Below are positions 21,090-47,344 of a stretch of 64,000 nt of DNA, one piece after another. Under the pieces are notes generated by a model. The model did no database searches and had not been told where the DNA came from. It worked only from the letters and a program-made list of their open reading frames with translations. The stretch covers positions 12,993 to 76,992 of the forward strand of contig DFKQ01000060.1 of the NCBI GenBank assembly GCA_002373875.1, given 5' to 3'. Within the stretch, counting starts at the first letter, position 1, and each line of letters begins with the position of its first letter. The position numbers were made by a program, and so were the translations under genes. Source of the DNA: Lachnospiraceae bacterium UBA3641 (GTDB lineage: Bacteria > Bacillota > Clostridia > Lachnospirales > Lachnospiraceae).

Positions 21090-21092
21090 TAT

Positions 21093-22208: not shown

Positions 22209-22237
22209 TCTCTCCCATCCTGTTCCGAATAGTTACT

Positions 22238-23284: not shown

Positions 23285-23348
23285 ATCCCTTTAAAGCTTA
23301 AACGTCAGGTTCGTGATCGAAACCTTCCGGCAGAGCGCAGGCAGTATC

Positions 23349-24545
23349 CTATACTGTCCCCGCAGCATGACCACCGTATCTTTCAAGCAGGGACACGCTC
23401 CGGCTTACATCAAAATTAGCCTCCAGATACCTGCGTCCGTTCATTCCCATGGTGTTACGCCTCTTCTCATCCATCATTTCTTCAATGCATTTCCAGAAGG
23501 CGGGGACATCATCAGACCGGCACCAAAGTCCGCATTCAGCCTCTTTAGTTATCAGATCCTTTATATCCGTATTCGGATCCGTGCAGGCTATCATCGGCTT
23601 GGCCATGGACATATATGACAGTGTCCTTGATGGATAATTGGGAATGGTAAACCTTACATCCAGAGATACTATACCAATATCACAGGTATCCATAAGCTTG
23701 CTGTATTCATCCGGCGGAAGATAATCGAAAAACCTCGCATTTGAAGCCCCTTCACATGTCCGTCTCACAAGCTCCGCTTCACTTCCGTTACCGGCAAATA
23801 TGAATTCAACCTTATCATATATGGGTGATTTATCGTACTGTATTACCTTAAGAAGGTAATCGACCGCCTGAGGCTTACCCAGGTTACCGCCAAATACAAG
23901 CCTTAACTTCCTTCCGGTTATGAACTTAAGTTCCTCTTCCTTAAGGGGAGGTACCTTTATTGTATTCGGAAATACAATCATTTTATCTTCGCTTATTCCG
24001 GGATTATTATCCTTCAGATATCTTAAATTCCCTTCGGACATGCAGCCGATAACATCCGACAGGTCATACAACTTTTTCTCTTTGTTCCTGAAGAACCTGT
24101 GTATGATCCCGCCCTTGCCGAAGAGTCCGATATCGACGGCATTCTGGGGAAAAATATCCTTAAGCATAAGAAAGGCCCTGCAACCGTAAACCTTCTTGCA
24201 ATATCTGACCACATTTGCAAAGGTCACGGGCGGGGTTGCATATAGTACAAGATCAAAATGATCTCCCGAAAGGAATGACCTTACTGCCGATTTAAGCTTC
24301 GGCTCAAGCAGCAGTGTGTTTATTCCCTTCTTTATGAAATTGACTCCGAACACTTCACCTGTGGAAACCTTAAGTATACGGACACCCTCTTCTGTTACCA
24401 TTTTTGTTTGCGGGGTATTCCTCGGACTGTCGGCACAGGCTATCGTAACCTTATGTCCCGCTGCACTCAGCGCATTTATAAGATCCGGATATATCCCCGC
24501 TTCCTTAAGATCCGGTTTTTTTAGCGTTAGATATAATATGTCCAT
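23349..24545 (-). CDS. GT4 glycosyltransferase, WbuB-like (candidate L-FucNAc transferase)
   Basis: 398 aa with a GT-B fold. It lies directly upstream of fnlABC, the usual partner position of WbuB-type L-fucosamine transferases. Donor specificity is inferred from context. Confidence 0.7.
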   Translation of the reverse strand: MDILYLTLKKPDLKEAGIYPDLINALSAAGHKVTIACADSPRNTPQTKMVTEEGVRILKVSTGEVFGVNFIKKGINTLLLEPKLKSAVRSFLSGDHFDLVLYATPPVTFANVVRYCKKVYGCRAFLMLKDIFPQNAVDIGLFGKGGIIHRFFRNKEKKLYDLSDVIGCMSEGNLRYLKDNNPGISEDKMIVFPNTIKVPPLKEEELKFITGRKLRLVFGGNLGKPQAVDYLLKVIQYDKSPIYDKVEFIFAGNGSEAELVRRTCEGASNARFFDYLPPDEYSKLMDTCDIGIVSLDVRFTIPNYPSRTLSYMSMAKPMIACTDPNTDIKDLITKEAECGLWCRSDDVPAFWKCIEEMMDEKRRNTMGMNGRRYLEANFDVSRSVSLLERYGGHAAGTV

Positions 24546-24559
24546 ATTTTGATCATTAA

Positions 24560-25240
24560 CTAGCGAATGATCTTTACAAGATCTTCAAGTGAAGTCACCC
24601 GCGCCGTTTCTCTGTATCCTTCCCTGTATGGCCGGTCGGCATAGATACTCTCCGGCCTTATGATCCTTACCGTCATTATCGGAAAATCACGTCCTATGAA
24701 GAAATCCTTCTCGGGGTTGTCACCTACATAAACCATATCGGACCAATCAGTCAAAAATGCTTCCTTCATCATAATGAAGGGCCTTGGGTCCGGCTTCCAG
24801 TAATCCCGCCCAAGTTCATCGGTAATGATTATCTTGTCAAAAAGCCTCTTCCCGTTCACATTAAGAACCGTAAGCTTCTTGCGCTGCGCCACTGCATATC
24901 CATCCGATAAAATACCCAGCTTGATCCCTCTGTTCTTAAGGGAAGCAAGTGCGGGCTTTACATCCGGGTAGAAATGAACCTCCGGGGTATGCTCTCTGTA
25001 TACCTCAACCAGCTCCAGTATTTCATTTTCCTTATACGCAATATCGTGGGCACTAAGCAGGCGGTTAAATACCTTCTTTGGGCTCTCCAGATACAGATCG
25101 TAGAGCTGTCTTGCGCTCATGCGTTCATCCCATCCGTACATATCCTTAAGGAACCTGGATACCGCCCTGTAACCGCTCCGTATGTATTCATCCTCCGATA
25201 TCAGCGTATCATCAAGGTCAAATATTACTGCCTTCTTCAT
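24560..25240 (-). CDS. HAD-superfamily hydrolase
   Basis: 226 aa. Motif I VIFDLDDTL, motif III/IV ..VYVGDNPEKD. Confidence 0.8.
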   Translation of the reverse strand: MKKAVIFDLDDTLISEDEYIRSGYRAVSRFLKDMYGWDERMSARQLYDLYLESPKKVFNRLLSAHDIAYKENEILELVEVYREHTPEVHFYPDVKPALASLKNRGIKLGILSDGYAVAQRKKLTVLNVNGKRLFDKIIITDELGRDYWKPDPRPFIMMKEAFLTDWSDMVYVGDNPEKDFFIGRDFPIMTVRIIRPESIYADRPYREGYRETARVTSLEDLVKIIR

Positions 25241-26216
25241 ACTCGAGTACCATATCTTCGTTTAACATAATGCATGAATCAAAGCGCAGGAAGGTGATAT
25301 TCTCCCTGTAATCTTCGTTATATGTTAAAACCTCACCCTTAAGGAGACGGTACAGGTTCTTGCATGAATCGGCCCCTGCCATTATCGACATGGGCGCTCC
25401 GCCTCCGAAGCGAGGATTGATCTCGATATACTCGATACCTCTGTATGTTTTACGGCATTGTACCGTGATGTGACCTACAGGCTTAAGCTCTTCCATAAGC
25501 CTTCTCACATCCGCCATGATGTCCGCATCCTTTACGATACGGCCCTTCATTATCTCCCCGCTCCTTGTCGCGATACGAAGCCTGGGAACCATAGTAATGA
25601 TATTGCTGTCAAAATCAAGGAATACATCGATCGTATATTCCTCGCCATCCATATAATCCTGTACCATCGGATTCTTAACAAGCGTCAGGATGGCATCAAG
25701 CTCCGTCTTATCATTCACCCTGTAGGTGTCTATGCTGGAGCTTCCGTCTATCGGTTTAACAAAAAGAGGATATTTGGCATTACCGTTCCTTATCTCCTGC
25801 GCCGTATACAGGTGCGGAACCTTGAAGCCGTGCTCCTCCATATAACTCTGCGTATTAAGCTTATTCCTGCAGATATTTACAACTGAAAGGGATGATACAA
25901 GTATCCTGGCCCCTGTTGCGTCTTCCATTTTCTTCCTGTTTTCTGCCAGCAGGAGCAGTTCGGTATCTATGGTCGGAACTACCAGCGAAACCTTCTCTTC
26001 GTTACATATTTCGATAAGGGCCTTTATATAATCGCCCGAATCAATACGCGGAACCAGCCTGTACTTGTCCGCAAAATACAAGGCAGGAGCAGTAGGCGAA
26101 CAATCAACTGCGATCACACTGCCGCTTATATCGAGGTCTTTTGCAGCCTTCTTGAAGCACTTTACAAGCTCCACTCTTCTTCCCGCGCTCAAAATAAGCA
26201 CATTTATGTCCGACAT
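25218..26216 (-). CDS. ATP-grasp domain enzyme (carboxylate-amine ligase type)
   Basis: 332 aa. Pre-ATP-grasp N-terminus (VLILSAGRRVELVK), then KP.DGSSS..., DY..GEEYT.D, and E.NPRFGGG at the C-terminal end. Confidence 0.8.
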   Translation of the reverse strand: MSDINVLILSAGRRVELVKCFKKAAKDLDISGSVIAVDCSPTAPALYFADKYRLVPRIDSGDYIKALIEICNEEKVSLVVPTIDTELLLLAENRKKMEDATGARILVSSLSVVNICRNKLNTQSYMEEHGFKVPHLYTAQEIRNGNAKYPLFVKPIDGSSSIDTYRVNDKTELDAILTLVKNPMVQDYMDGEEYTIDVFLDFDSNIITMVPRLRIATRSGEIMKGRIVKDADIMADVRRLMEELKPVGHITVQCRKTYRGIEYIEINPRFGGGAPMSIMAGADSCKNLYRLLKGEVLTYNEDYRENITFLRFDSCIMLNEDMVLEYEEGSNI

Positions 26217-26224
26217 AACCCTAC

Positions 26225-26842
26225 CTATTCCTCTCCCTTGAAGAAATCCATCGTCGCAGATCCTTCCGGGCTTATACCTTCCTTTTTAAGCACGTTCCTT
26301 ATCGTCATAATTACTATCTTAAGATCCAGGATGAAGGATACCTTCTCGGTATACTCCACATCATATTCGAACTTCTGCGGCCAGGTCAGGGCATTTCTTC
26401 CATTAACCTGTGCCCAGCCTGTCAACCCCGGAAGAACGTCATGCCTGTGTTTCTGGCGTTCGTTGTACAGGGGCAGGTACTGCACCAGCAGGGGCCTCGG
26501 ACCCACAAGGGACATATCACCCTTCAGTATACAGAAGAGTTCCGGAAGCTCATCAAGGCTGCTGGCACGCAGCTTACGCCCAAAGGATGTAAGCCTGGCT
26601 TCATCCGGTTTAAGCACCCCGTTCTCATCACGCTCATCCGTCATGGAACGGAACTTGTACATGTGAAAGATCTTACCGTCCTTGCCCGGTCTGTCCTGAT
26701 GGAACAATACGGGACTCCCGAGCCTGACCCTCACCAGTACAGCCAGCACAATAAACACGGGCGACAGGACAATGATCGCGGACAGCGATAAGACTATATC
26801 AAGCAATCGTTTTATAAATCTTTTATATATCATCTTACACAA
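26225..26842 (-). CDS. Small monotopic phosphoglycosyl transferase (PglC/WcfS type initiating transferase)
   Basis: 205 aa. One re-entrant N-terminal helix plus the sugar transferase domain (YKFRSM..LDELPELFCILKGDMSLVGPRP..GLTGWAQVNGRN). Confidence 0.9.
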   Translation of the reverse strand: MCKMIYKRFIKRLLDIVLSLSAIIVLSPVFIVLAVLVRVRLGSPVLFHQDRPGKDGKIFHMYKFRSMTDERDENGVLKPDEARLTSFGRKLRASSLDELPELFCILKGDMSLVGPRPLLVQYLPLYNERQKHRHDVLPGLTGWAQVNGRNALTWPQKFEYDVEYTEKVSFILDLKIVIMTIRNVLKKEGISPEGSATMDFFKGEE

Positions 26843-27959
26843 ACAAGCTCCGGATGATCGTTATTATCCTGTCCATATCCTCACGGGTATTCTTAATGTC
26901 TGACGGCAGACATAGTCCGCGGTCGAATATCTTCTCGCAGAGGAACCCGTCCCCTGCGCCTATCATGTCCGAACCCTTATATACAGGCTGAAGATGCATG
27001 GGCTTCCATATGGGCCTGCTCTCAACATTCTCCTTCTCAAGCGCAAGCAATATATCAAGAGGCTTAACACTTGAACCTTCGTCGATCGTTATACATGATA
27101 ACCAGAAATTGGGCTCTGAGCATGACAGATATGGATTCATCCTTATCGCTTCAATATCCTTAAAGGCATCCTTGTATTCCATGTATATATCCTTTTTAAT
27201 GGATACATGTTCATCAAGATGCTTCATCTGCCCCCGGCCTATTCCCGCCACCACATTGGACATCCTGTAGTTGTATCCGATCTCCTTATGTTCATAGTGA
27301 CGTTCGGGTTCCCTTGCCTGGGTTGAGTAAAACCTGGCCTTCTTTATCTTATCTTCATCCATGCAGTAGAGCATTCCGCCGCCGGATGTCGTTATTATCT
27401 TATTACCGTTAAAGGAGAATATTCCATAGTCACCAAAGGTACCGGTCTGAGCTCCCTTATAGGTTGAACCGAGTGATTCCGCCGCATCTTCAATAAAGGG
27501 TACATTATGATCCTTACAGATATCTCTGATCTCGTCAAGCTTAGCCGGAGTCCCGTAGAGGTTGGCAGCTATAACTGCTTTAACTTCGGGATATTTATCG
27601 AAGGCCTTCTCAAGAGCCACCGGATCCATGTTCCATGTTTCTGCATCAGAGTCAATAAATACCGGCCTTGCGCCAACGTATACTATGGGATTAACGGTTG
27701 CCGAGAAGGTCATGGAAGGGCCGAAGACGATATCATCTCTTCCCACTCCCGCAAGTATAAGGGCAAGATGGATTGCCGCAGTTCCTGATGACAGAGCCGC
27801 ACAATAACCGCCGCCGACATAGGCTGCAAGCTCCTTTTCAAATTCATTGACATTAGGGCCCAGCGGAGCTACCCAGTTGGTATCAAAGGCTTCATTTATA
27901 TATTTAAGTTCTTCCCCATGCATCGTTGGACTGCTTAGGTATATTTTCTTGTTTGTCAT
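26835..27959 (-). CDS. DegT/DnrJ/EryC1/StrS-family sugar aminotransferase (PglE/WcfR-like)
   Basis: The start was moved to the ATG at 27959 (GAGGA RBS 6 nt upstream; MTNKKIYLSSPTMHG). It has the PLP-lysine context FSFNGNKIITTSGGGM. Confidence 0.9.
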   Translation of the reverse strand: MTNKKIYLSSPTMHGEELKYINEAFDTNWVAPLGPNVNEFEKELAAYVGGGYCAALSSGTAAIHLALILAGVGRDDIVFGPSMTFSATVNPIVYVGARPVFIDSDAETWNMDPVALEKAFDKYPEVKAVIAANLYGTPAKLDEIRDICKDHNVPFIEDAAESLGSTYKGAQTGTFGDYGIFSFNGNKIITTSGGGMLYCMDEDKIKKARFYSTQAREPERHYEHKEIGYNYRMSNVVAGIGRGQMKHLDEHVSIKKDIYMEYKDAFKDIEAIRMNPYLSCSEPNFWLSCITIDEGSSVKPLDILLALEKENVESRPIWKPMHLQPVYKGSDMIGAGDGFLCEKIFDRGLCLPSDIKNTREDMDRIITIIRSLFV

Positions 27960-28091
27960 GGTTGTTCCTCTGTATTTCCCATACAACACAGGCTCAAAAT
28001 ATATGTGTTGTCTGAACATATTGTCATATTATATCATAGAAAGTCAGACCTTGGCAAATTCGCCCCGGTCCACTCTCTAACACCATATATA

Positions 28092-29336
28092 CTAATTATT
28101 TACTCCACCTGTATCCTCCGGTTTTTCATTGATCTTAAGGACTGCCCTTCCGAGCGCAAAATAAACTATAGGAGCACATAGCTCCATCTCCAGCACATTG
28201 GATCCGATGGACATAAGGATGGCGGAAGTGATCACGGCAAGTTCCGGAACTATACCGCTAAGTTTTTTATTCCTTCCCGTCAGTGCCTTAATATATATCA
28301 TGACCACAACTGTTATTATCATAGCTGTTCCTATGATCCCCATCTCAGTGTAGAGTTTCACAAGTCCGCCGTCCGCCACAATATAGGGTTGTATCCCCGC
28401 AGCCCTGTGTCCGTGGCTTCCAAGCCCGTCGCCTATCCAGATATTTTTCATACTGTTAACGGCATCCACCCAGGACCCGGATCTTTCACCGAAACCATCA
28501 GGGATTGAAGCAAGCCTGATGTAGAATTTCTCGAAGACTCCCCTTGCAACTATAAAGACAGCAACAAGTATGGCAGCCACGCTTCCAAGAGCGATCCAGA
28601 TATATTTCATGGGTTTTCTCCTGTCCACCACAATATCGACAAACTCATAAAAAACAAGAAACAGGATAACGCAGAACATTGCCGATCTCTGATTTGCCAT
28701 GAAGGAAAAAAGGATAGATAATAAAAGATAAATGACACCTATGATCTTCGTCTTCTTTTCGTCTTTCCTTAAGAAAAATGCTGATACACAGGTTGAATAT
28801 GCCACAAAGGCTCCCATGGGCCCCGAACCGATTATTGAGTTCATCCTGACCCTCATCGTAGGTACATCAGCCTTGGATATGAATTCATTAACATATGAAA
28901 AATCAATGTAGAACCGGGGTGCCCAGATATAGAACACCGCCCCGATGGCCCCCATAAGCAGCGCAGCAACCATAAAGCCATGATAATACCTGGCTGCGTA
29001 TTCTTCATCAAATCCCCTGCCCGCATAATATAGTATCATCGGAAGAAAAGTTGTGGATACCTCTCCGACAAAAACGCTCAAGGGAATGCCGTAATGCACA
29101 CACCATATTCCCGAGATCAGATTAAACAGAACATACAGGGCAAACACCCTGTCGCAGGCAGTCGCAAAGGTCAGATGAAAGGCACAGATACCCACCACGC
29201 CTACGGCAAGAAAAAATGTCATGGTAATACCTGTCCTGATCGAACTGAAAAAAACATAAGCAAAATAAATAAGCGTGAACAGCGGATAGATAAAACAGAT
29301 ATATTCATTTACATACTTCTTAAGTTTTGTAGCCAC
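28092..29336 (-). CDS. Wzy-type polymerase / O-antigen-ligase-family membrane protein
   Basis: 414 aa with about 10-12 TM helices. The external loop motif GERSGSW..N...IWIGDGLGSHGH resembles Wzy_C proteins. Full-length paralogue of 17599-18417. Confidence 0.7.
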   Translation of the reverse strand: MATKLKKYVNEYICFIYPLFTLIYFAYVFFSSIRTGITMTFFLAVGVVGICAFHLTFATACDRVFALYVLFNLISGIWCVHYGIPLSVFVGEVSTTFLPMILYYAGRGFDEEYAARYYHGFMVAALLMGAIGAVFYIWAPRFYIDFSYVNEFISKADVPTMRVRMNSIIGSGPMGAFVAYSTCVSAFFLRKDEKKTKIIGVIYLLLSILFSFMANQRSAMFCVILFLVFYEFVDIVVDRRKPMKYIWIALGSVAAILVAVFIVARGVFEKFYIRLASIPDGFGERSGSWVDAVNSMKNIWIGDGLGSHGHRAAGIQPYIVADGGLVKLYTEMGIIGTAMIITVVVMIYIKALTGRNKKLSGIVPELAVITSAILMSIGSNVLEMELCAPIVYFALGRAVLKINEKPEDTGGVNN

Positions 29337-29342: not shown

Positions 29343-29371
29343 TTTCAAACCTTTCTCTTTCATGTTATACT
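29343..29371 (+). promoter_or_regulatory. Candidate sigma-70-type promoter for the carrier-protein gene
   Basis: TTTCAA-17 nt-TATACT, with TG upstream of the -10 hexamer (extended -10). It lies about 85 nt upstream of the ATG at 29455. Sequence-only prediction. Confidence 0.3.
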
Positions 29372-29454
29372 GTAACTGTCCGGATCAATTATTCCCGACT
29401 GTTTCGGACGATCACCATCAACAATAACAAACATGGATCATAACGGAGGTTACT

Positions 29455-29679
29455 ATGGAAGAACTGTTAGAAATACTTAGGGATGTACGAGACGATATCG
29501 ATTTTGGGCAGGCTACCGATCTGGTAAGCTCCAAGCTGCTTACATCCTTCGATATCATTCAGCTTATCAGCACACTTGATGATGAGTATGATATCTCCAT
29601 TCCAGCATCCGAGATCGTCCCCGCCAATTTTGATTCTGCGCAGGCTATATATGCGCTGGTTCAAAGGCTGAAGGGTTAA
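29455..29679 (+). CDS. DltC-like acyl/aminoacyl carrier protein
   Basis: 74 aa and acidic. The GGAGG RBS lies 6 nt upstream. The helix-2 Ser context KLLTSFDIIQLISTL parallels DltC IIDSFQTV.LL. It is the only plus-strand gene in a 14-kb minus-strand block. Confidence 0.8.
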   Translation: MEELLEILRDVRDDIDFGQATDLVSSKLLTSFDIIQLISTLDDEYDISIPASEIVPANFDSAQAIYALVQRLKG

Positions 29680-31220
29680 CTGAGCTCAGACAGCCGGTGC
29701 CGGTCGATCTTGCCGTTTTTATTAAGCGGCATCTCATCAAGCTTCACCGTCTTACCGGGGATCATGAACTGCGGAAGCTTCTGCTTCAGGGCTTCTGTCA
29801 GTTCCCTCTTCTCCATTTCCCCGGTGTAGAAGAGCTCTATCCTCTTCTTCCCTGTGTTGTAGATGCAGCAGGCTCTTGTAATACCGTCCGCTGCCTGTGC
29901 CGCCGCCTCTATCTCCCCTAATTCTATTCTCTGTCCCATATGCTTTATCTGGAAATCCTTACGGGATACATATATCAGGTTCCCCTCTTCATCATACCTT
30001 CCTATATCACCGGTCCGATACATAAGCTCACTGAACCTGTCATTCAGGGGATTCTGCATGAACGCCTCCGCAGTTCTTTCGAAATCCCTGTAATAGCCCA
30101 GAGCCAGACAGGTACCCGAAACACATATCTCGCCGCACTTCCCGGACTCAACAACCCGGCGATCCGCTTCGTCAAGAAGGAACACCTTCTCATTTACAAA
30201 GGGAACACCGGCAGGTATCGATTCATCATTTTCATAATCACGGTCAAGGATATAGTAAGTGCAGTTGCAGGTTATCTCAGTAGGTCCGTACAGATTTACA
30301 TATGTCGCGTCAGGAAGAAATCTCCGCCACTTGTTAAGGTGCTTTACAGGCATGACCTCTCCGCTGAACATCACTTTATTTATGGTTTCCGGCGTCCTGT
30401 ATTCAAGTCCGTTCATTATGGACACAAAACACATTGCGGATACCGCCCATATCAGGGTAGTTACCTTATTGTCCGCCAGATAATCCATTAAAAGGACCGG
30501 GTTCGAGAAATAGTCCCTCGGGATCAACCAAACACTTGCTCCCGTGTACAGGCCGCTGTAGATATCCTTGACGGAAACATCAAAATCAAAAGGGGCCTGA
30601 TTGGCCAGTATATCTTCGTGGGTAATGTTAAATGTCCCGGTAAATACCCTGATAAAATCAATCACCGAACGATGGCTCACCGCTACCCCCTTCGGCGTAC
30701 CCGTGCTCCCGCTTGTGAAATTCACATAGAGCGGCCGTATGTCGCAGGCCTTCATCCCGGCTTCTTTAAGTAAACCTTCATCCGGTTCGCATTTTGCCGC
30801 ACATTCAAGAAGATCGTTTATCAGAACGATCTTGGGCTTAGGTTCATCTGCCTGTGCCATGATCCCCCTGAGAGCTTCCTCGTTTTCGATGTCCGTGACA
30901 ATAAGCTTCGGTGCAAGAATGCTTATTACACTTGCGGCACGCTCCGCAGGCTGCCTTACATCAATGAAGCTGTAGAAGGCCAGAGCCCGTACCGCACCCA
31001 ACATCACTCCCACCGCATCCGTACTTTTCTCCATGTAAAAGCCCACTCCGTCTTCTGCTTCAAGCGGGCCGAATCTCTCATCCCGCAAAAACAGCGTGGC
31101 AATCCTTAAAACAGTATCATTAAGTTCACCGTATGTGATGCTCTTATCCGGATCGGCAAAAGCAATCCTGTCTTTATGATCCATAGCTGCTTTTTCAAGC
31201 ATGGTGATCACATCAGTCAT
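29676..31220 (-). CDS. DltA-like adenylate-forming enzyme (carrier-protein ligase)
   Basis: 514 aa. A3 motif FTSGSTGTPKGV, the DltA-like FDFDVSVKDIY, A8 YRTGD and A10 NKNGKIDR. Its stop codon overlaps the carrier gene stop on the opposite strand. Confidence 0.85.
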   Translation of the reverse strand: MTDVITMLEKAAMDHKDRIAFADPDKSITYGELNDTVLRIATLFLRDERFGPLEAEDGVGFYMEKSTDAVGVMLGAVRALAFYSFIDVRQPAERAASVISILAPKLIVTDIENEEALRGIMAQADEPKPKIVLINDLLECAAKCEPDEGLLKEAGMKACDIRPLYVNFTSGSTGTPKGVAVSHRSVIDFIRVFTGTFNITHEDILANQAPFDFDVSVKDIYSGLYTGASVWLIPRDYFSNPVLLMDYLADNKVTTLIWAVSAMCFVSIMNGLEYRTPETINKVMFSGEVMPVKHLNKWRRFLPDATYVNLYGPTEITCNCTYYILDRDYENDESIPAGVPFVNEKVFLLDEADRRVVESGKCGEICVSGTCLALGYYRDFERTAEAFMQNPLNDRFSELMYRTGDIGRYDEEGNLIYVSRKDFQIKHMGQRIELGEIEAAAQAADGITRACCIYNTGKKRIELFYTGEMEKRELTEALKQKLPQFMIPGKTVKLDEMPLNKNGKIDRHRLSELS

Positions 31221-32154
31221 TTCCGCTCCCTTCCTCTGTGCCGAATCTTTTCTTAAATACCTGTATCAGTTCTTTTGTATACGCCCTGCGCCCCTTCGCC
31301 GACATGTGGTTCATGTCTTCAAAGAATTCAGGATCATCCGATTCAAAATCAACCTCATCTGCCAGGATATAGGGAGCGTTGTTCTCCTCAAGTATCCTGA
31401 TGTACTCTTCCCTGTATTTTATGAAGGTCGGATCCTTTTGAAGTCTGTGATAGCATGGACTTTCGAGAAAGACGAATCCCTGCCCGTCCTTTTGGCATTT
31501 TTGTATTATATCAACTACCGCATCTGCCTGAGCCTTGACCAATGACTTATCCGAAATATCAAATTCCTCACTTTCCAGCACAGCCTTCCCGGGAGATACC
31601 GTTTCGTCTGTCTTGGCACCTTTATAATACCTGGTCCCATAGAAGGGCTCCGTCACCGGAAATGTAATAAGGTCATCCATACCTGATGTCACAAAATACT
31701 CATAAAACATCGGAAAATCGGTATTCCCCGCTGCATACATGCTCCGCCACAGTTCTCTCTTACCTTCAAAGGTCAGGTCCCAGATCACCCTCGAATCCGA
31801 AAGCGCTACCTCCTGTGTAAGCATCATCGGTCCCAATTCGAAAACGATCAGGCCGTAATCATTGCCCGACCTGCGTTTCAATTCATCATACTGGATAGAT
31901 GTTGCCACAAGCTGGTTGCCTCCGTAGGAAATATCATATACCCTGCCGTCATAGGCTTCATCCATGGTCGGCATATCGATATTGGCCCTGAAAGTTGACG
32001 AACCGATAAACAGGACATCCAGATCACCGGTTTGTATTGCGTCATGGATTCCCCTGTTCCTTATCGGCATTTTGCACGAATATACATTTTTGAAGGCGAC
32101 GACAGCTGCTACAATGATAAGGGCCGCCGCAACGGTTATTATTACTTTTTTCAT
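31213..32154 (-). CDS. Membrane-anchored SGNH/DltD-like protein
   Basis: The start was moved to the ATG at 32154 (MKKVIITVAAALIIVAA signal anchor). Block I-like motif LFIGSSTF and block V-like DMNH (DxxH). It sits between the MBOAT and the adenylase. Confidence 0.5.
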   Translation of the reverse strand: MKKVIITVAAALIIVAAVVAFKNVYSCKMPIRNRGIHDAIQTGDLDVLFIGSSTFRANIDMPTMDEAYDGRVYDISYGGNQLVATSIQYDELKRRSGNDYGLIVFELGPMMLTQEVALSDSRVIWDLTFEGKRELWRSMYAAGNTDFPMFYEYFVTSGMDDLITFPVTEPFYGTRYYKGAKTDETVSPGKAVLESEEFDISDKSLVKAQADAVVDIIQKCQKDGQGFVFLESPCYHRLQKDPTFIKYREEYIRILEENNAPYILADEVDFESDDPEFFEDMNHMSAKGRRAYTKELIQVFKKRFGTEEGSGND

Positions 32155-32158
32155 GATC

Positions 32159-33586
32159 TTAAAATGCCTGGTACATAAAACTTGATTTTCCCGCCACACC
32201 GAAAAGTGCAATGATCGTTAACATCGCAAAAGCATATATATATCTGTGCCCGGTAAATGCCTTTTCGTCTTTTTCCTTTTTTATTTCTATTACGGCCTGG
32301 GCTGTCACAAGCACCAGGATTATGATGACAGAGGCTGCTGCCTGATTACCGTTTCCGAAGGGTGTCATCGCAGCCGCGATCTCGGCACCGTTTATCCGGG
32401 TGTTTGTAAATATTCCCTTAAATATGGCAACCATATCAGAAAAGCTCTCCGATCTGTAGATGATCTCGCCACAGCTCAATATAAGTAGCGTCCTGCATAC
32501 CTGAAAGATCTTAACAAAGATATTGTTTGTATTCCAATGTATCCTTGCATTTAATTTTTTTATATAAGACTGGGTACAGAATGAAAGAAGCATTATAAAG
32601 GCAAAATAGATACCCCAGCCAAGATATGAGAATTTCGCACCGTGCCATATTCCGGTCACTATCCAGACAAGCATCGTCGGAAATATGCACCTTAGTGTTC
32701 CTTTTTTGGCTTTTGTAAATATCTTCCCAAGCCCTCTTGAGAGCTTTCTGTTCCATCCGGCGGTAACCGAAGGCATGTAAAGATGGTTCATAAACCATTC
32801 ATTCAGTGATATATGCCATCTTCTCCAGTACTCAGGTATGCTATTTGACAGATAGGGCCTTTTGAAATTCTCTTTTAAATTGATGCCCAGCATTTTAGAT
32901 ACTCCGCATACAATATCCATATATCCCGAGAAGTCAGCGTACATCTCCACAAGATAAAATAATGTGGCCACAATAAGAGTCAGCCCGCCGCGGCCCACAG
33001 GCGATGAATAAACGGTATCAATATAAAAGCCCACTCTTCCGGCTATAACGAGCTTTTTAAATATTCCGATTATTATCCTGTATCCGCCCTCTTTTATATT
33101 CTGTCTGTTGTATCCATGATAAGCAACAAGCTGGTCGTGCATCTCCTGATATGTCCCTATGGGGCCCTGTGTCAGCTGGGGAAAGTAGGAGATAAAAAGT
33201 GCATAATGCCAAAGATCGTTACAGGGTTTGATCTTCTTATCATAGCAGTCATGGGCATAACCCAGGGTCATAAAGGTATAGAAGGATATTCCCAAGGGTG
33301 CGGCCAGATCCCTGACACCCAGATTCACGCTGTACTTAAAGACTATAAGAAGGCCCAGGTTTATTGCTATGGTCAATATGAAATTCCGCTTTACAGGGTT
33401 TCTCATAAGGAACCATGTAGACACGATCGAAATAATTATGAATATTATGTAAACCGGATTTGCCCAGACATAAAATATGGCATTTCCGACGAGAAGTGCC
33501 TTCCACTGGTGCTTTTCTCCCACCTTGTAATATATACAGAGGAAGCATAGCATGAATATGAAAAAGGGAAGCGATATAAGGCTCAT
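32159..33586 (-). CDS. MBOAT-family membrane O-acyltransferase (AlgI/DltB type)
   Basis: 475 aa and multi-pass. MBOAT signatures YWRRWHISLNEWF and the conserved His in GIWHGA. Confidence 0.9.
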   Translation of the reverse strand: MSLISLPFFIFMLCFLCIYYKVGEKHQWKALLVGNAIFYVWANPVYIIFIIISIVSTWFLMRNPVKRNFILTIAINLGLLIVFKYSVNLGVRDLAAPLGISFYTFMTLGYAHDCYDKKIKPCNDLWHYALFISYFPQLTQGPIGTYQEMHDQLVAYHGYNRQNIKEGGYRIIIGIFKKLVIAGRVGFYIDTVYSSPVGRGGLTLIVATLFYLVEMYADFSGYMDIVCGVSKMLGINLKENFKRPYLSNSIPEYWRRWHISLNEWFMNHLYMPSVTAGWNRKLSRGLGKIFTKAKKGTLRCIFPTMLVWIVTGIWHGAKFSYLGWGIYFAFIMLLSFCTQSYIKKLNARIHWNTNNIFVKIFQVCRTLLILSCGEIIYRSESFSDMVAIFKGIFTNTRINGAEIAAAMTPFGNGNQAAASVIIILVLVTAQAVIEIKKEKDEKAFTGHRYIYAFAMLTIIALFGVAGKSSFMYQAF

Positions 33587-33730: not shown

Positions 33731-33762
33731 GCAAGAAAGGTCCCGGCAAATCTGCCGGAACC
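33731..33762 (-). terminator. Rho-independent terminator after the acidic-protein gene
   Basis: Minus strand: GGTTCCGGCA-GATT-TGCCGGGACC (10-bp stem with one G-U pair) followed by TTTCTTGCATTTG. Confidence 0.65.
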
Positions 33763-33823
33763 TCAATTAAATTCATCCTTTTTTGCCGTTTTATTTACCG
33801 ATCCCGCTCTCTGATCCGGCTGA

Positions 33824-34714
33824 TCATACCTCACTCGCGGTTGCCGGATCGACTCCCAGAACCTCCTGCATCACCTTAAGCCGTCCGTTCTCTACTGCCC
33901 TGTCAAGAGCTTCCGATGTGATCCTGTCATTTTCCTCGGCACCGGCCAGCACGTTCATTCTTTCTATGAATTCATTATCAAGACCCATTTCCTCGGTTAT
34001 TATCCGTTTCCTGTTTTCATCGGCTTCATTTGTGACCGTCGGATTCTCATTTGCCTCGTCCCTCTCCTCTTCGTTTTGGACAGCCGCTTCATTTGCCCGC
34101 TTGTCACTTATCTCTTTGTTGGTGCTTACAACCTCATTGTCTCTCTTTGTGACCTCATTAACTCCGTACTCTCTCCTGTCCTCCATTGTACGGGCAGCTT
34201 CCTCATTGGTCTCCTTTTCTTCCTTTTCATCGTTGATTTCAGCCATTCTGGCATCGTTCTTCTCGCCCCTTACTTCTTCACGGCGTTCAAGTTCCTTATC
34301 CAACTGGTTGCTGTTTATCTCGCCCTGTAAGTACAGACGCTCCAGTTCATCCTTGGAATAAGACAGAAGCGAACTAACCTTACCGGGATCAGCCTTATCC
34401 TCATTGCCGGTCCTTCCCGCTTTTTCGGCATCCTCAGGCCTTACTTCCACGGGCTTTCTCATAACCAGACCTTCACTGATACTTTCCATTGCTTCCCTGC
34501 TTGCCCTGGCCTGATCTCCGTCCCTGCTTACTCCTATGGTCTCACGCCCGTCATTAATTTCGGGTTTTACGGCAGGCTGGTCTTTCGCCGGCTCCAAACC
34601 CTTGGGTTCTGCCCCGGCTCCCACCTTCTCGATCTGTATCTCAATCTCTCTGTTATCTACGGGTTTTATGTCTCTGTATGCAGGCATCATTTCATTTATC
34701 GGACTTATTTTCAT
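33824..34714 (-). CDS. Highly acidic, low-complexity (E/D/N/R-rich) hypothetical protein
   Basis: The start was moved to the ATG at 34714 (GGAGG RBS 8 nt upstream; MKISPINEMM). 296 aa, with no TM helix or signal peptide seen and no recognisable domain. It has its own promoter and terminator. Confidence 0.6.
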   Translation of the reverse strand: MKISPINEMMPAYRDIKPVDNREIEIQIEKVGAGAEPKGLEPAKDQPAVKPEINDGRETIGVSRDGDQARASREAMESISEGLVMRKPVEVRPEDAEKAGRTGNEDKADPGKVSSLLSYSKDELERLYLQGEINSNQLDKELERREEVRGEKNDARMAEINDEKEEKETNEEAARTMEDRREYGVNEVTKRDNEVVSTNKEISDKRANEAAVQNEEERDEANENPTVTNEADENRKRIITEEMGLDNEFIERMNVLAGAEENDRITSEALDRAVENGRLKVMQEVLGVDPATASEV

Positions 34715-34842
34715 ACCTTTCACCTCCGTTATTTCGGTTAAACGTAGCCATTCCCCACAAAACAAACCACAATATCTTGTATATGTTCTTTGTATTTGTA
34801 CTATCTATACATATCGTCACATAGATATACTTATGTGATTTT

Positions 34843-34881: not shown

Positions 34882-34916
34882 TATAGTAAACGAAATTACT
34901 TATTTCGTTTACTATA
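34882..34916. promoter_or_regulatory. Perfect palindrome TATAGTAAACGAAAT-N5-ATTTCGTTTACTATA (candidate operator or terminator hairpin)
   Basis: The 15-bp arms are perfectly complementary. It overlaps the stop codon of 34912-36105 and sits just upstream of the -35 of the next promoter. Near-copy of 6894-6928. Confidence 0.4.
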
Positions 34917-36105
34917 GAAATGAACCGAGGAACCGTCCCCCGGTTTTAAGATCCTCCTGTTTTACTCCACAGATCAATATGAGAAAGATAAGCGAAAATG
35001 GCGGAACGATAATATAATTTTCCATAAATGCCGGCAGCATCATTGCAAATACGCCTGCCATCGCGCACTTGTTAAGGTGTGATGAACAACCGGCCTCATG
35101 GCACTCCAGAAAACGTTTTATCAAGAACACTATCGTTACCGCAAAAACAGCGACGCCATGAACTATAAGTATATCAAGGAGACCGTTATGAACTTCAAAC
35201 AGGCCGTTAAGCCAGTCAAGCCGCATCTCATAGGATGATCCGATACCCGTGACCGGTTGTTTCATAAATGCTCCCCAAAGCTCCGACCATATCTCCTCCC
35301 TTCCCGAGATTATATCCTTGTAAAAGATCCTTATACGGAATGTATCCTTCATATACCCCAGCCACACATAAAGGAGGCTGAACAGCACCGACCCTATTGT
35401 GGTAGCAAGAGTTACAAGAAGATAAAATATCTTACTCTTCCATATCTTTACCGGAATAAGCATAAGAAAGGCAAAAGCCAGCAATCCCAAGAGCGCGCAC
35501 CGGCTTCTGTACCAGGCGATGATGTTATAGCCCCAGGCAAAGAAAAAAAGCGTAACAAGGATAAGCCATCTTGCCCCCTGTTTACCCTTTACGTTACAGA
35601 GATGATCCCTCAGATACTCAAGGATATATATTGTGAAAAAGAATCCGCTGATAAGGATCAGGCCACCATAGTTGGTATTGTATCCCTTGAAATAGCCCTT
35701 GACATCCACGGTCCAGTAGATAAAGAAAAAGCCGATATAGCAGGCCGATATGATAAACCATTTCCTGCTCAAACGGATCTTGTTTGCCAGATAAAGGATA
35801 AGGAGAAAGTCAGCTGCCGTCAGAAAAGCGCCCTTACCGGATCCCAGCAGGAAAAGATTTATCAGGGCAACAGCATCCGCACCCGCCATAAGAAGAAAGG
35901 CAGGATCCTTTAGCATCTCCCTTATATCAACATAGCAAAAGAGTGCGATAAGAAGGCCTGCTGTTGCGATAAGCGTCCCATATGGAGCCACCGCCTGATA
36001 CCAGGTATAGAAATGCCATTCAAGTGTCGTAAGCACAAACACCGATACAAGTATCGCCGCATTCCCGGCCGCTGTTCTCCTGTCACTCTTCCTTGTTATT
36101 TCCAT
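34912..36105 (-). CDS. O-antigen-ligase/Wzy_C-family membrane protein
   Basis: 397 aa and multi-pass. The loop motif FYKDIISGREEIWSELWGAFMKQPVTGIGSSY is typical of Wzy_C proteins. Paralogue of 37629-38930. Confidence 0.7.
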   Translation of the reverse strand: MEITRKSDRRTAAGNAAILVSVFVLTTLEWHFYTWYQAVAPYGTLIATAGLLIALFCYVDIREMLKDPAFLLMAGADAVALINLFLLGSGKGAFLTAADFLLILYLANKIRLSRKWFIISACYIGFFFIYWTVDVKGYFKGYNTNYGGLILISGFFFTIYILEYLRDHLCNVKGKQGARWLILVTLFFFAWGYNIIAWYRSRCALLGLLAFAFLMLIPVKIWKSKIFYLLVTLATTIGSVLFSLLYVWLGYMKDTFRIRIFYKDIISGREEIWSELWGAFMKQPVTGIGSSYEMRLDWLNGLFEVHNGLLDILIVHGVAVFAVTIVFLIKRFLECHEAGCSSHLNKCAMAGVFAMMLPAFMENYIIVPPFSLIFLILICGVKQEDLKTGGRFLGSFL

Positions 36106-36172
36106 AGTTACCCTTGCTTCCGTTTATTTCCTGCCGGAAATGATCTGTCTTTCAAGCAATCTTTCGCTGTTT

Positions 36173-37642
36173 TCAGGCTTCCCCTAAAGAGGAAGGCTTT
36201 ATAAGCTTACCCAGGATGCTTATGAACATCCTGAAATATATTACCACAATAACGGCAAAAATGATCCCGCAGGCAATATAAACCGGCATTTGTGACGAAA
36301 AAAAGCCTTCGCCCGCGATCATTATCACTGCCTCAGCTACAAGCAGCAAATATGCTGCATGATCCACTGCAAGCTTTACATCAAGCTTAACATACCCTGC
36401 CACCTTTCGATAGGCCATAAAATACATTGTAAAATATGATACTGCTGTAGCAGCGGCAGCGCCCATTGCTCCAAAGGGAGGAATCAAGAGGATGTTTAAT
36501 GCAATGTTGATCCCCGCTCCTATCCCTGTTGCCCACCCCATGGCCCGGGAATCCTTATAGGCAAGACATATCGATCCCAGAAACCCGGTGAGGGCACCGA
36601 ACACGACCGATATGAGAAGAGGCGGTACATACTGCCAGGCGGAATAGAAATCCTTTTTGAACATGAATGCCGCTACAGGCTTTACAACCAGAATAAGAAA
36701 TGAACAGCCGATAACCATGAAGGAATTATATCCCTTATACATTTCGGTAAAAAACTCCCTGCTGTTATCCTCTCCGTAGCTTTTGGCCGCCGACATCTGA
36801 AAACTCTGGGCAAATATCCTCTGAAACACGGTCAGTATGGCGGGTATCTTATATGCCACCGAATACACTCCGTTTACGGCCACGCCCTTTATAAGTGATA
36901 CCAGATACCTGTCAGCCGCATTATTTATCCAGCTTCCTGTTGAATAAGCTATCATCGGAACTCCGTAGGCAACCAGTTCCCTTTCGAATTCCTTATCTAC
37001 GCCTGTGCCTTCCTCGCTTCGCCTAAGCCTTACAGCATCCGGCACAGTCCTTCTTCCGAGCAGGAGCATAAGTGCCGATGCAAGTATATAGGCAAGCATC
37101 TGCGATAGCAGATATCCGTTAAGCCCAAGCCTTAAAAAAAGAAGACATACGATATTGGAACCGATCAGGATAACCGTTGAAAACACACTTCCGCATACAA
37201 CTATCTTAACCTGTTCACATCCCTGAAAAAAAAGGATCAGGAATTCATAGGTGCAGTTGGAGAGAAAGAGGAAAATGAAGAGAAAAAGATACCATCTTAC
37301 CGGTTCCTTTTGAATAAAGGCACTTCCGGCCATACATGCAAGGGCAACGGCAGCGGAAGCGATCGCAACAAACTTAAGACCCGTAACAAAGATATCCCTT
37401 CTCTTATCACTCCTGTCGATACCATACCTCAGTGCAGCCTCCCCCATGTTAAGTGTCAGCGCCGGCACAAGGAGCAGAAGGGTTGTCTGCATAACATCCG
37501 CAATTCCGTAATCCGCCGTGGTAAGCACATTTGTATAAAAGGGTACAAGAAGGAAGACCAGTATCTTGGACACGAAATTACTGACAGTGAAAAGGGCAAG
37601 ATTACCCGCAAAATATTTATAGTTGGATTTAGTGCCCGACAT
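36173..37642 (-). CDS. wzx: Wzx-type flippase (MOP superfamily)
   Basis: 489 aa with about 14 TM helices. The N-terminus FAGNLALFTVSNFVSKILVFLLVPFYTNVLTTADYG parallels the flippase at 5417-6853. Confidence 0.85.
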   Translation of the reverse strand: MSGTKSNYKYFAGNLALFTVSNFVSKILVFLLVPFYTNVLTTADYGIADVMQTTLLLLVPALTLNMGEAALRYGIDRSDKRRDIFVTGLKFVAIASAAVALACMAGSAFIQKEPVRWYLFLFIFLFLSNCTYEFLILFFQGCEQVKIVVCGSVFSTVILIGSNIVCLLFLRLGLNGYLLSQMLAYILASALMLLLGRRTVPDAVRLRRSEEGTGVDKEFERELVAYGVPMIAYSTGSWINNAADRYLVSLIKGVAVNGVYSVAYKIPAILTVFQRIFAQSFQMSAAKSYGEDNSREFFTEMYKGYNSFMVIGCSFLILVVKPVAAFMFKKDFYSAWQYVPPLLISVVFGALTGFLGSICLAYKDSRAMGWATGIGAGINIALNILLIPPFGAMGAAAATAVSYFTMYFMAYRKVAGYVKLDVKLAVDHAAYLLLVAEAVIMIAGEGFFSSQMPVYIACGIIFAVIVVIYFRMFISILGKLIKPSSLGEA

Positions 37643-38930
37643 TTTTCACCTCATCCATCGTCCCTGACCCTTCTTCCTTTTGCGGCAGAGTCGCCGAATT
37701 GATCACGCACAAAAGAAATATAAGGTTCAGGGCATAATCAGCCCAGATCAGATCCACATCGAAGAAGGATTCAAAAAAGACTGCCATAACCGCGCACATG
37801 GCACACATGGCCACCCTGCTGTCACTGATCCTTTTATGAAAGCCCTGCATACGTTTGCAGACAAAATATACTATCCCCAAAAAAACTATAAGCCCGTGAA
37901 TCACGAGAAAGTTGTACATGGCATTATGAACATTCTTCTCAAAGAAGCTCTTAAGCTCGAAACCCGTCCCTATTCCCGTAAATATCATATAAGGTCTTTC
38001 CCTGTTTGCCAACAGGCCAAAGAGCTCCTTCCATATGGCTTCCCTGCCGGAAAACACCTCTTTATAGAAGAATGGAAGCTTGAAGTTGGCGCCCGTTGTT
38101 CCTATGAGGACATACAGTCCCACAAAGACAAGGGACCCAAATGTTGCCAAAAGACACATGGCCGCGTAAAAGCTCCTGTTTCTCCAAAGCTTTCCCGGAA
38201 CAATATACCAAAACAGCATAAACAGAACAAGCATTATAAAGGCTCCTCTTGCCCGGTGCCACAGGGACAACTGGAAACCCTTAAGAAGGATCATGACCAT
38301 AAAGAGTCCCACAAGAGGTCCCCTGTCTATGTACATTTCAAGAAGAATAAAGGCACACAGCAAAGTATAAATGGTAAAGGTGGCTGCCGTATTGGTATTG
38401 TATTTGTAGTTCTCAAAGGTGGTAAAGAGCCCGGGATATGCGATAAAGAGATAAAAAAGAAGAAATCCCATATATAAGCCCGCAAAAACCTTCAGCTGTC
38501 CCGGGTTAAGGTACATTTTATCGGACAGATACCATATAAGGATAAAATTGACGGGTACAAAGAAGGCTCCCTTACCGGAATTCACTATAAACAGATTTAT
38601 CCCCGCAGTCAGGATGATCACTCCAAGCAGATATATTTCCCGGCTTCCCCTGCTCTTTAAATCGGACAATATCTGTCGTAACCCTTTATCCTCTCCCGAA
38701 AGCATCACATTATTTACAAAAAGGATAATGAGCATAAAAAAATTAACAAGCCCCGCATACGGATAAACTACATTTATCGTATCGTAGAACCTGGGCACGG
38801 TGAATGTGAGCGCGTATATTATGAACATAACGAGCATTACAGAGAAGTTGATGACTTCCCTGCGTCTTACCCTTTTTCCGTCAGAAGATCCTGAAGCTTT
38901 CTCCATAATTCCACTGTTCTTTTTTCCCAC
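37629..38930 (-). CDS. O-antigen-ligase/Wzy_C-family membrane protein (second paralogue)
   Basis: 433 aa. FYKEVFSGREAIWKELFGLL...FTGIGTGF. The start is uncertain (an alternative ATG lies at 38906). It overlaps the upstream GT4 3' end. Confidence 0.7.
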   Translation of the reverse strand: MGKKNSGIMEKASGSSDGKRVRRREVINFSVMLVMFIIYALTFTVPRFYDTINVVYPYAGLVNFFMLIILFVNNVMLSGEDKGLRQILSDLKSRGSREIYLLGVIILTAGINLFIVNSGKGAFFVPVNFILIWYLSDKMYLNPGQLKVFAGLYMGFLLFYLFIAYPGLFTTFENYKYNTNTAATFTIYTLLCAFILLEMYIDRGPLVGLFMVMILLKGFQLSLWHRARGAFIMLVLFMLFWYIVPGKLWRNRSFYAAMCLLATFGSLVFVGLYVLIGTTGANFKLPFFYKEVFSGREAIWKELFGLLANRERPYMIFTGIGTGFELKSFFEKNVHNAMYNFLVIHGLIVFLGIVYFVCKRMQGFHKRISDSRVAMCAMCAVMAVFFESFFDVDLIWADYALNLIFLLCVINSATLPQKEEGSGTMDEVKNVGH

Positions 38931-40686: not shown

Positions 40687-40687
40687 A

Positions 40688-42836: not shown

Positions 42837-42861
42837 TTATATACTCCGCTTGTTAAGATAT

Positions 42862-44621: not shown

Positions 44622-44629
44622 ATTTCTCC

Positions 44630-44824
44630 TAAAGGTAACATCATAAGGGCTCCTCCCATAAATGGGTCCCTCCTCATGAACAGTCGTAAAATCCATCCTG
44701 AATTATGCTTCGCATAATGGATTTTACTAAGGTAACATCATAAGGACTCCTCCCATAAATGGGCCCCTCCTCATGAACAGTCGTAAAATCCATCCTGAAT
44801 TATGCTTCGCATAATGGATTTTAC
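44630..44824 (-). repeat. Tandem duplication (2 x ~98 bp) of a two-hairpin intergenic element
   Basis: Copies 44630-44727 and 44728-44824 differ by 2 substitutions and 1 indel. On the minus strand each unit is GTAAAATCCA-TTATGCGAAGCATAA-..-TGGATTTTAC followed by TCATGAGGAGGG.CCCATTTATGGGAGGAG.CCTTATGA. Confidence 0.85.
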
Positions 44825-45930: not shown

Positions 45931-45938
45931 CCTGTTTA

Positions 45939-47339: not shown

Positions 47340-47344
47340 AAAAG

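Follow-up and report, generated by a model that had tools for sequence, protein, structure and literature searches.

A carrier-linked MBOAT-SGNH cassette in rumen and gut Lachnospiraceae that may amino-acylate a surface polysaccharide

In the Dlt system (DltX-A-B-C-D), an adenylase loads an amino acid onto a small phosphopantetheinylated carrier, from which a membrane-bound O-acyltransferase (MBOAT) passes it through the tyrosine of an FxYxxF motif to an anchored SGNH protein and on to the polymer. This motif, the “acyl shuttle”, resides on the microprotein DltX in Dlt, whereas every other bacterial MBOAT-SGNH system has it fused to the MBOAT's C-terminus via two additional helices; these other pathways draw on an acyl-CoA donor and hence have no carrier protein (PMC12148441). 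They include PatA/PatB, AlgI/AlgJ(F,X), and WssH/WssI, which act on peptidoglycan, alginate, and cellulose, respectively, and in the first of these PatA auto-acetylates the tyrosine of the motif, after which PatB accepts the acetyl group from PatA (PMC12148441). Here, we describe a locus that shares features with both groups. It lies in a 64-kb stretch of contig DFKQ01000060.1 from Lachnospiraceae bacterium UBA3641 (hereafter the window), in which 29455-33586 holds four genuine open reading frames (ORFs) encoding an MBOAT, an SGNH protein, a stand-alone ligase, and a carrier protein (Table 1).

A preliminary description had read these genes as the full logic of a Dlt machine. All four ORFs exist and contain the motifs quoted at the time (TSGSTGTPKGV, FDFDVSVKDIY, YRTGD, NKNGKIDR, and GSS...DxxH, the last in the form GSST...DMNH), and the donor arm, consisting of ligase and carrier, is indeed Dlt-like, whereas the membrane arm turned out to be of the PatA/AlgI type. 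Judged by its sequence, the system is a hybrid in which a Dlt-type donor arm is combined with a PatA/AlgI-type membrane arm. With moderate confidence, we read the locus as a carrier-dependent MBOAT-SGNH system that esterifies a wall or capsular polysaccharide with an amino-acyl group via the fused tyrosine shuttle. The argument rests on what is established: the identities of the domains, conservation of the catalytic residues, the shuttle motif fused to the MBOAT, an adenylation pocket unlike that of DltA, and a conserved gene linkage.

A full-text literature search found neither a carrier-dependent MBOAT with a fused shuttle nor a Dlt-like module in a polysaccharide locus, which agrees with the earlier opinion that such a system had not been described; Schultz et al. 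2023 was outside the coverage of this search.

Domain composition and the fused acyl shuttle

The MBOAT has a predicted catalytic histidine, His315, within GIWHG, which aligns with the FWHG of DltB, and two extra hydrophobic helices come before its terminal FMYQAF. The conserved histidine, the two additional C-terminal helices, and the FxYxxF end that mark PatA/AlgI-type MBOATs are thus all present, and the membrane arm is, as far as the sequence tells, of this type, carrying the DltX motif at the end of the MBOAT itself. The fusion explains both the AlgI-like size of the protein (475 aa), which had been noted as a departure from DltB and is now accounted for by the two helices and FMYQAF, and the absence of a DltX-like mini-ORF. 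No separate ORF for a DltX-like microprotein was found across the 64 kb, in line with the preliminary description, and the MBOAT C-terminus is the sole credible occurrence of the motif; a loosened FxYxxF pattern also matched the ends of ten other ORFs, none of which is DltX-microprotein-like. Of 41 family MBOATs, 40 keep the FxYxxF C-terminus, as does each of seven further relatives that were examined.

Among the sequences of the PDB, the sole matches of the MBOAT are DltB entries (6bug/8jem; 79 bits over residues 33-334), which would suit an ordinary Dlt system, and on the NCBIfam DltB model TIGR04091 it reaches 146 bits against a cut-off of 375. An MBOAT from a relative without carrier scores 174 bits on the same model, i.e., above the MBOAT of the window, so the match to DltB says only “bacterial MBOAT”.

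The SGNH ORF comprises 332 codons, and because all homologues begin at Met20, the protein is likely 313 aa long. Its predicted triad is Ser52/Asp280/His283; G51-S52-S53-T54, G78-G79-N80, D280, and H283 are invariant across 27 homologues. Like the partners of PatA- and AlgI-type MBOATs, it is encoded adjacent to the MBOAT, is N-terminally anchored, and has a Ser/Asp/His triad. The AlphaFold model (pLDDT 90.1) has an SGNH fold with an N-terminal helix at residues 2-28, and Foldseek matched it to DltD (7dxm/6pfx/3bma; E about 2e-4, TM-score 0.45-0.49), but equally to PatB and to acetyl-xylan and other generic SGNH esterases. No Pfam family, DltD included, and no NCBIfam family matched the protein, and a search of the family profile against PDB sequences found nothing, so that its likeness to DltD is one of fold only; it is also about 80 aa shorter than DltD.

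The ligase reaches 316.9 bits on the amino-acid adenylation domain model TIGR01733, whose cut-off is 317.4. It stays far below the cut-offs of the DltA models (TIGR01734, 246.8 bits vs 559.85; NF003417, 260 vs 476), and its best PDB matches are the adenylation domains of the nonribosomal peptide synthetases (NRPSs) LgrA and PheA, with DltA lower at 177 bits. The 74-aa protein has a carrier-protein fold by its sequence, with a predicted phosphopantetheine site at Ser31 in LLTSFDIIQ, and SFDIIQ is kept in 38 carrier sequences. It is no DltC equivalog (NF003464, 26.9 bits vs 68; TIGR01688, 18.2 vs 52.35). Models for DltA, DltB, and DltC were among the best NCBIfam matches of the locus, in keeping with a divergent Dlt system, yet no component attains the cut-off of a Dlt model.

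Aligning the ligase to PheA and to the DltA of Bacillus cereus, with a residue-for-residue check against PDB 1AMU and 3DHV, gave the pocket code DVKIMSLCNK (D214, V215, K218, I257, M284, S286, L310, C318, N319, and K504), compared with DAWTIAAICK in PheA and DLMTLCTVAK in DltA. Only Asp235 and Lys517 are common to ligase and DltA; the other eight of ten positions differ, and the cysteine that determines D-alanine is replaced by serine. D-alanine is therefore an unlikely substrate. Since Asp235 and Lys517 are retained, the pocket fits an amino acid and speaks against a fatty or aryl substrate. Of 30 family ligases, 28 have the identical code and the remaining two differ at position 278 alone, and as these ligases are only 58-79% identical overall (a near-identical copy in L002 excluded), the family would seem to load one defined substrate. 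Naming it from NRPS specificity codes was tried and given up: the nearest is a Ser-type code (D-V-x-x-x-S-L-x-x-K), and the lysine at position 239 (Lys218) resembles one Glu code, neither being close enough. On the contig of the near-identical copy (L002:8185-9776), which belongs to a metagenome-assembled genome and matches the window at 99% identity, the ligase is spread over two ORFs and its translation has undetermined residues; the probable cause is a gap in the assembly, not pseudogenization.

The carrier gene lies on the strand opposite to the other three genes, and its stop overlaps that of the ligase tail-to-tail. Coding on this strand is backed by homologues in 37 other loci, and a GGAGG ribosome-binding site lies 7 nt ahead of its ATG; a 65-aa minus-strand ORF overlapping the gene had no family match in a Pfam scan. 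Therefore, there is no uninterrupted co-directional operon in the window. The earlier placement of the cassette at the head of an operon is uncertain because the carrier gene is antisense and because each flanking cluster is of a type in which the cassette is found elsewhere. An invertible switch at the carrier gene was considered and dropped, as an inverted-repeat search of its flanks gave only short matches of a size expected by chance. A T-box or riboswitch that would name the amino acid was also sought with Rfam in the window and in four loci, and the scan gave nothing but a tRNA gene, present in two of these loci.

Table 1. Features of the locus and its surroundings in the 64-kb window
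Feature	Position	Strand	Description
MBOAT acyltransferase	32159..33586	-	475 aa; Pfam MBOAT E = 3e-15
Predicted catalytic His315 of MBOAT	32642..32644	-	in GIWHG
FMYQAF (fused FxYxxF “acyl shuttle”)	32162..32179	-	MBOAT C-terminus (...GKSSFMYQAF)
Predicted acyl-accepting Tyr472	32171..32173	-	in FMYQAF
SGNH transferase, membrane-anchored	31213..32154	-	313 aa from Met20; N-terminal transmembrane helix; SGNH fold (AlphaFold/Foldseek)
Stand-alone amino-acid adenylation ligase	29676..31220	-	514 aa; Pfam AMP-binding E = 4e-60
Carrier protein	29455..29679	+	74 aa; Pfam PP-binding E = 2e-3
Predicted phosphopantetheine site Ser31	29545..29547	+	in LLTSFDIIQ
Wzy/WaaL-fold membrane protein (“Wzy414”)	28092..29336	-	AlphaFold pLDDT 80; WaaL 7tpg match E = 4e-6
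Downstream polysaccharide genes	19944..28019	-	DegT/LegC-like aminotransferase, PglC-type initiator, ATP-grasp, HAD, GT4, FnlA/B/C-like; Pfam/NCBIfam
Terminator-like hairpin between upstream cluster and MBOAT gene	33737..33764	-	12-bp stem, 7 G-C pairs, T-rich tail; consensus match only
Low-complexity ORF	33824..34765	-	313 aa; highly acidic, E/D/N/K-rich; no Pfam/NCBIfam match
Upstream polysaccharide cluster	34912..50950	-	RmlD-like, GDP-mannose dehydratase, epimerase, DUF6077 x2, GT2s, large Bac_transf, GT4, Wzx, Wzy_C; Pfam
Two adjacent DUF6077 membrane proteins	44821..47339	-	within upstream cluster
Third polysaccharide cluster	725..13344		Bac_transf initiator, GT4, cytidylyltransferase-GT28 fusion, Wzx
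NeuB-family synthase	12178..13344		low-coordinate end; part of third cluster
S8 subtilase	52831..56493	-	1220 aa; Big_2 domains
LCP (LytR-CpsA-Psr) ligase and sortase	61481..63452	-	

Conservation of the cassette in related loci

A scan of one genome per species yielded 43 loci (designated by L numbers), all from rumen or gut Lachnospiraceae and one of them from a cultured isolate, AC3007. Recurring in 43 species-level genomes, the gene set is grouped far beyond chance. The MBOAT gene lies directly upstream of the SGNH gene in all 42 loci in which upstream sequence is present. By gene content, and differing in this from the PatAB-type systems, which have neither carrier nor loader, the carrier is found in 37 and the ligase in 30 of the 43 loci. 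The carrier directly adjoins the SGNH gene in most carrier-bearing loci and stays beside it even in stand-alone cassettes with no other sugar genes near (L017, L022, L033, and L057). Provided that carrier and MBOAT cooperate, the conserved linkage of carrier and ligase to the MBOAT-SGNH pair makes the cassette an exception to the rule that such MBOATs work without a carrier.

The association with polysaccharide loci that had been proposed earlier is borne out by two genomes in particular. L011 is fully co-directional and has the cassette in the middle of an operon: dehydratase, DegT, PglC, ATP-grasp, HAD, MBOAT, SGNH, ligase, carrier, GT4, Wzy-like, FnlABC, and glycosyltransferases. In L056, the cassette together with a decarboxylase is inserted in a syntenic copy of the upstream cluster of the window, between the GDP-sugar genes and the DUF6077/GT2/Bac_transf genes, and the proteins of this cluster are 46-91% identical to those of the window. 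In total, the cassette sits inside a polysaccharide operon in about a dozen loci, and PglC and ATP-grasp genes lie directly upstream of the MBOAT in nine related loci. Stand-alone cassettes occur in housekeeping surroundings in L017, L022, L033, L035, L041, and L057 (e.g., LepA/HemN, glycolysis genes, or a GGDEF-EAL protein). With two types of host cluster and stand-alone copies, the cassette appears to be a portable decoration unit. Four of the stand-alone copies consist of MBOAT, SGNH, carrier, and a Wzy/WaaL-like gene, and their 10-kb flanks on both sides are free of a ligase gene (L017:8571-12348, L022:8572-12357, L035:8355-12334, and L041:8567-12378).

A fold-type III pyridoxal phosphate (PLP) decarboxylase lies directly beside the ligase in 17 of the 43 loci, while none was found within the 64-kb window. 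The best PDB match of the family decarboxylases is BtrK, the L-glutamyl-[BtrI acyl-carrier-protein] decarboxylase of butirosin biosynthesis (108.9 bits, compared with 88.8 for diaminopimelate decarboxylases), and they remain below the cut-offs of the LysA and TIGR03099 models (148-181 bits vs 478 for the latter). In five loci, a tRNA-Ser(GCU) gene lies directly upstream of the ligase-decarboxylase-carrier operon (L020:9938-10025, L028:9582-9670, L030:7417-7506, L032:5577-5664, and L043:16072-16159), which is probably synteny kept within one clade.

The SGNH profile hit only 382 clusters among 1.84 billion representatives. Four distant members (L044, L047, L049, and L053) pair the SGNH protein with a 468-496-aa MBOAT that ends in FLYANF, FIYANF, FLYAGY, or FLYAQF, and three of the four lie in glycosyltransferase-rich or sugar-nucleotide clusters. 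The nearest outgroup (L051:3296-7835) encodes, all in one direction, an FkbH-domain loader, a 79-aa acyl carrier protein (ACP) bearing a DSL motif, an MBOAT of 525 aa with FIYMQY at its end, and an SGNH protein; the loader scores 269 bits on TIGR01686, above the cut-off of 146.65. The position of FkbH and ACP directly upstream of the MBOAT is an independent sign that this MBOAT-SGNH lineage couples to carriers. L051 represents a second kind of carrier-linked MBOAT-SGNH system, whose acyl group is expected to be of the glyceryl type, and the lineage looks like one of polysaccharide O-acyltransferase pairs that acquired carrier donors, the loaders being of two kinds or more.

Proposed mechanism and alternative explanations

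We infer the transfer of acyl groups to a polysaccharide from the gene context, and likewise propose the amino acid, the acceptor, and each of the following chemical steps. The ligase would activate one specific amino acid other than D-alanine, possibly an amino-dicarboxylate of the Asp/Glu type held in part by the pocket residue Lys218, and would attach it as a thioester to the phosphopantetheine arm at Ser31 of the carrier. At the cytoplasmic face, the carrier would hand the acyl group to the MBOAT, whose His315 would move it to Tyr472 of FMYQAF at the outer face. Ser52 of the SGNH protein would then receive it, and a sugar hydroxyl would be esterified, either on a Wzy-dependent polysaccharide of wall or capsule or on the lipid-linked repeat unit of this polymer. 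The BtrK-like PLP decarboxylase of sister lineages may first decarboxylate the carrier-bound amino acid, which would give a cationic ester of the beta-alanyl or gamma-aminobutyric acid (GABA) type.

The last step has a parallel in BtrI/BtrJ/BtrK, where a carrier-tethered amino-dicarboxylate is decarboxylated on the carrier; VinN/VinL/VinO of the vicenistatin starter unit reportedly follow a similar carrier-tethered route. On-carrier decarboxylation needs a free alpha-amino-carboxylate, which implies an amino-dicarboxylate tethered via its distal carboxyl, and the lysine at pocket position 239 would fit the second carboxylate of such a substrate. We therefore favour a substrate of the Asp/Glu type, which in loci with the decarboxylase would yield a beta-alanyl/GABA-type ester, but regard this suggestion as rather doubtful. 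Carrier, loading ligase, and fold-type III PLP decarboxylase are common to the Btr proteins and the sister loci. The Btr and Vin pathways differ in being cytoplasmic antibiotic pathways that have no MBOAT/SGNH export arm, BtrJ is an ATP-grasp enzyme whereas the ligase of the window has an adenylation domain, and the window has no decarboxylase.

A triad of TIGR03098 ligase, TIGR03099 decarboxylase, and ACP, which we take to be associated with exosortase-A (PEP-CTERM) exopolysaccharide loci and to lack an MBOAT, likewise links ligase, decarboxylase, and carrier to exopolysaccharide. We know of no MBOAT-SGNH pair in the proteobacterial exosortase-A loci, and the ligase of the window scores 192 bits on TIGR03098, far below the cut-off of 592. 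Amino-acylation of a glycolipid other than teichoic acid by an adenylase and a carrier has reportedly been found in Vibrio cholerae, where the Dlt-like proteins of AlmE/AlmF/AlmG are said to put glycine on lipid A. That system is described as using an LpxL-type acyltransferase at the cytoplasmic face, in contrast to the MBOAT, SGNH protein, and tyrosine shuttle of the cassette.

Several observations weigh against carrier-dependent esterification. No carrier, ligase, or decarboxylase was found in the fetched flanks of the four distant relatives (10 kb; shorter on the L053 contig), and the MBOAT-SGNH pair can thus presumably work from acyl-CoA. The arrangement of carrier and ligase, in order as well as in orientation, differs greatly among the loci, and four loci with full 10-kb flanks carry the carrier without the ligase. 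The window has no decarboxylase, yet its pocket code is the same as in decarboxylase-bearing loci, which leaves the transferred group uncertain. A decarboxylase of the family type can also lie away from the cassette, as in L055, so the genome of the window may encode one elsewhere. Finally, gene position does not settle which of the two flanking polysaccharides, if either, is the acceptor. The decarboxylase of L055 (L055:8001-9224) is 55% identical to the copy in L015, scores 152 bits on the LysA model, i.e., below its cut-off, and adjoins histidine-biosynthesis genes and a PAS-GGDEF-EAL protein, with no MBOAT, ligase, or carrier within 8 kb.

The carrier-less relatives lend some weight to an explanation in which the MBOAT-SGNH pair is an ordinary polysaccharide O-acetyltransferase that uses acetyl-CoA, as PatAB and AlgIJ do, while ligase and carrier, joined or not by the decarboxylase, belong to a different pathway in the cytoplasm that supplies an (amino-)acyl group for a sugar precursor, e.g., for N-acylation of the 4-amino sugar made by DegT. 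The window shares with PatA/PatB, AlgI/AlgJ(F,X), and WssH/WssI the MBOAT with fused shuttle, the anchored SGNH protein, and presumably a glycan acceptor, and the carrier-less relatives of the pair lie in polysaccharide clusters. In the same direction point the PatA/AlgI architecture of the MBOAT, a ligase that is at times kilobases off or locally absent, the frequent proximity of DegT, PglC, ATP-grasp, and HAD genes to the cassette, and the MBOAT-less exosortase-A triad, to which related models match here. The described pairs use acetyl-CoA without a carrier (PMC12148441), whereas here carrier and adenylase are genetically tied to the pair. The carrier is the immediate neighbour of SGNH in most carrier-bearing loci, the stand-alone cassettes, whether or not they include ligase and decarboxylase, have neither sugar-nucleotide genes nor another acyltransferase able to use the carrier in their housekeeping surroundings, and in L051, FkbH, ACP, MBOAT, and SGNH form one tight co-directional block. 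We therefore consider a separate acetyl-CoA-dependent transferase unlikely, if still deserving of attention.

Carrier-dependent transfer might also have another acceptor, such as peptidoglycan, a membrane glycolipid, or a glycan (e.g., of a glycoprotein) handled by a Wzy/WaaL-fold protein. A Wzy/WaaL-fold gene accompanies the stand-alone cassettes, and WaaL-type proteins include ligases as well as O-oligosaccharyltransferases. The six cassettes away from polysaccharide clusters would be in keeping with such an acceptor, and PatAB sets a precedent by acting on peptidoglycan (PMC12148441). In about a dozen loci, in contrast, the cassette is part of a polysaccharide operon, and every carrier-less relative on a contig of useful length also lies in a glycosyltransferase-rich or sugar-nucleotide cluster. 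An acceptor other than the neighbouring heteropolysaccharides thus appears quite improbable.

A divergent but otherwise ordinary Dlt system, D-alanylating a lipoteichoic or wall teichoic acid whose synthesis genes would lie elsewhere in the genome, is very unlikely: the parts list of adenylase, carrier, MBOAT, and SGNH protein with a DltD-like fold agrees with it, and lipoteichoic acid has been reported from some Lachnospiraceae (Butyrivibrio), but the Dlt model scores, the pocket, the shuttle fused to the MBOAT in place of a DltX microprotein, and the SGNH protein without sequence similarity to DltD speak against it, as do the heteropolysaccharide operons around the cassette and the decarboxylase of many relatives, which has no role in D-alanylation. 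The preliminary description had likewise argued against teichoic-acid D-alanylation, and its remark that the stretch contains no teichoic-acid genes agrees with a Pfam scan of ORFs across the 64 kb, in which no teichoic-acid synthesis family (e.g., Glyphos_transf, LicD, or LtaS-type sulfatase) was matched.

Neighbouring polysaccharide genes and implications

In the window, the cassette sits between two polysaccharide clusters, of which the downstream one also carries further glycosyltransferases. The adjoining gene had been called Wzy. Its product has no Pfam match itself, WaaL 7tpg is the only significant structural match of its model, and some homologues carry PF04932 Wzy_C or bear the name “O-antigen ligase family”. 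From these matches, the protein is a member of the Wzy/WaaL superfamily that may be either polymerase or ligase. Such a gene adjoins the cassette in 14 of the 43 loci, including stand-alone cassettes. Both clusters are candidate acceptor pathways, and since both types host the cassette elsewhere, the acceptor is not assignable by position. The terminator-like hairpin on the upstream side and the co-travelling Wzy/WaaL-like gene on the downstream side make us lean towards the downstream cluster.

Further genes in the window deserve mention. The acidic low-complexity ORF lies between the Wzy_C gene of the upstream cluster and the cassette and is followed by the strong terminator-like hairpin. 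A DUF6077 gene, of which the upstream cluster has two, also follows the cassette in L056. The third cluster, which is broken up by oppositely oriented MoxR, DUF58, and transglutaminase genes, contains a NeuB-family synthase, which suggests that its polymer may contain nonulosonic acid. An S8 subtilase is encoded beyond the upstream cluster, and the LCP enzyme, encoded with a sortase, would fit the attachment of polysaccharides to the cell wall.

Rumen Lachnospiraceae may possess an unrecognised class of carrier-dependent MBOAT-SGNH glycan acyltransferases with swappable loaders, i.e., a ligase with adenylation domain alone, such a ligase with an on-carrier BtrK-like decarboxylase, or an FkbH glyceryl-ACP loader, which would decorate Wzy-dependent polysaccharides with amino-acyl, beta-alanyl/GABA-type, or glyceryl esters. 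We put this wider proposal forward tentatively and somewhat on the doubtful side of an open question. If true, Gram-positive bacteria would have a means of tuning surface charge that is independent of teichoic acid, and MBOATs with a fused shuttle, now thought to be restricted to acyl-CoA, would accept acyl-carrier-protein donors. In the current model, Dlt combines a carrier donor with a separate DltX, while all others combine an acyl-CoA donor with a fused shuttle; a cassette that mixes both would mean that the type of donor and the architecture of the shuttle vary independently. The near-invariant adenylation pocket and the defined serine, histidine, and tyrosine residues offer a concrete handle for mutation, and the interchangeable loaders suggest a natural toolkit for putting different acyl groups on extracellular glycans. 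The proposal predicts new amino-acyl or decarboxylated amino-acyl esters on the polysaccharides of gut and rumen bacteria, and such esters would alter surface charge, antigenicity, recognition by phages and host lectins, and resistance to cationic peptides in abundant, little-studied gut anaerobes.

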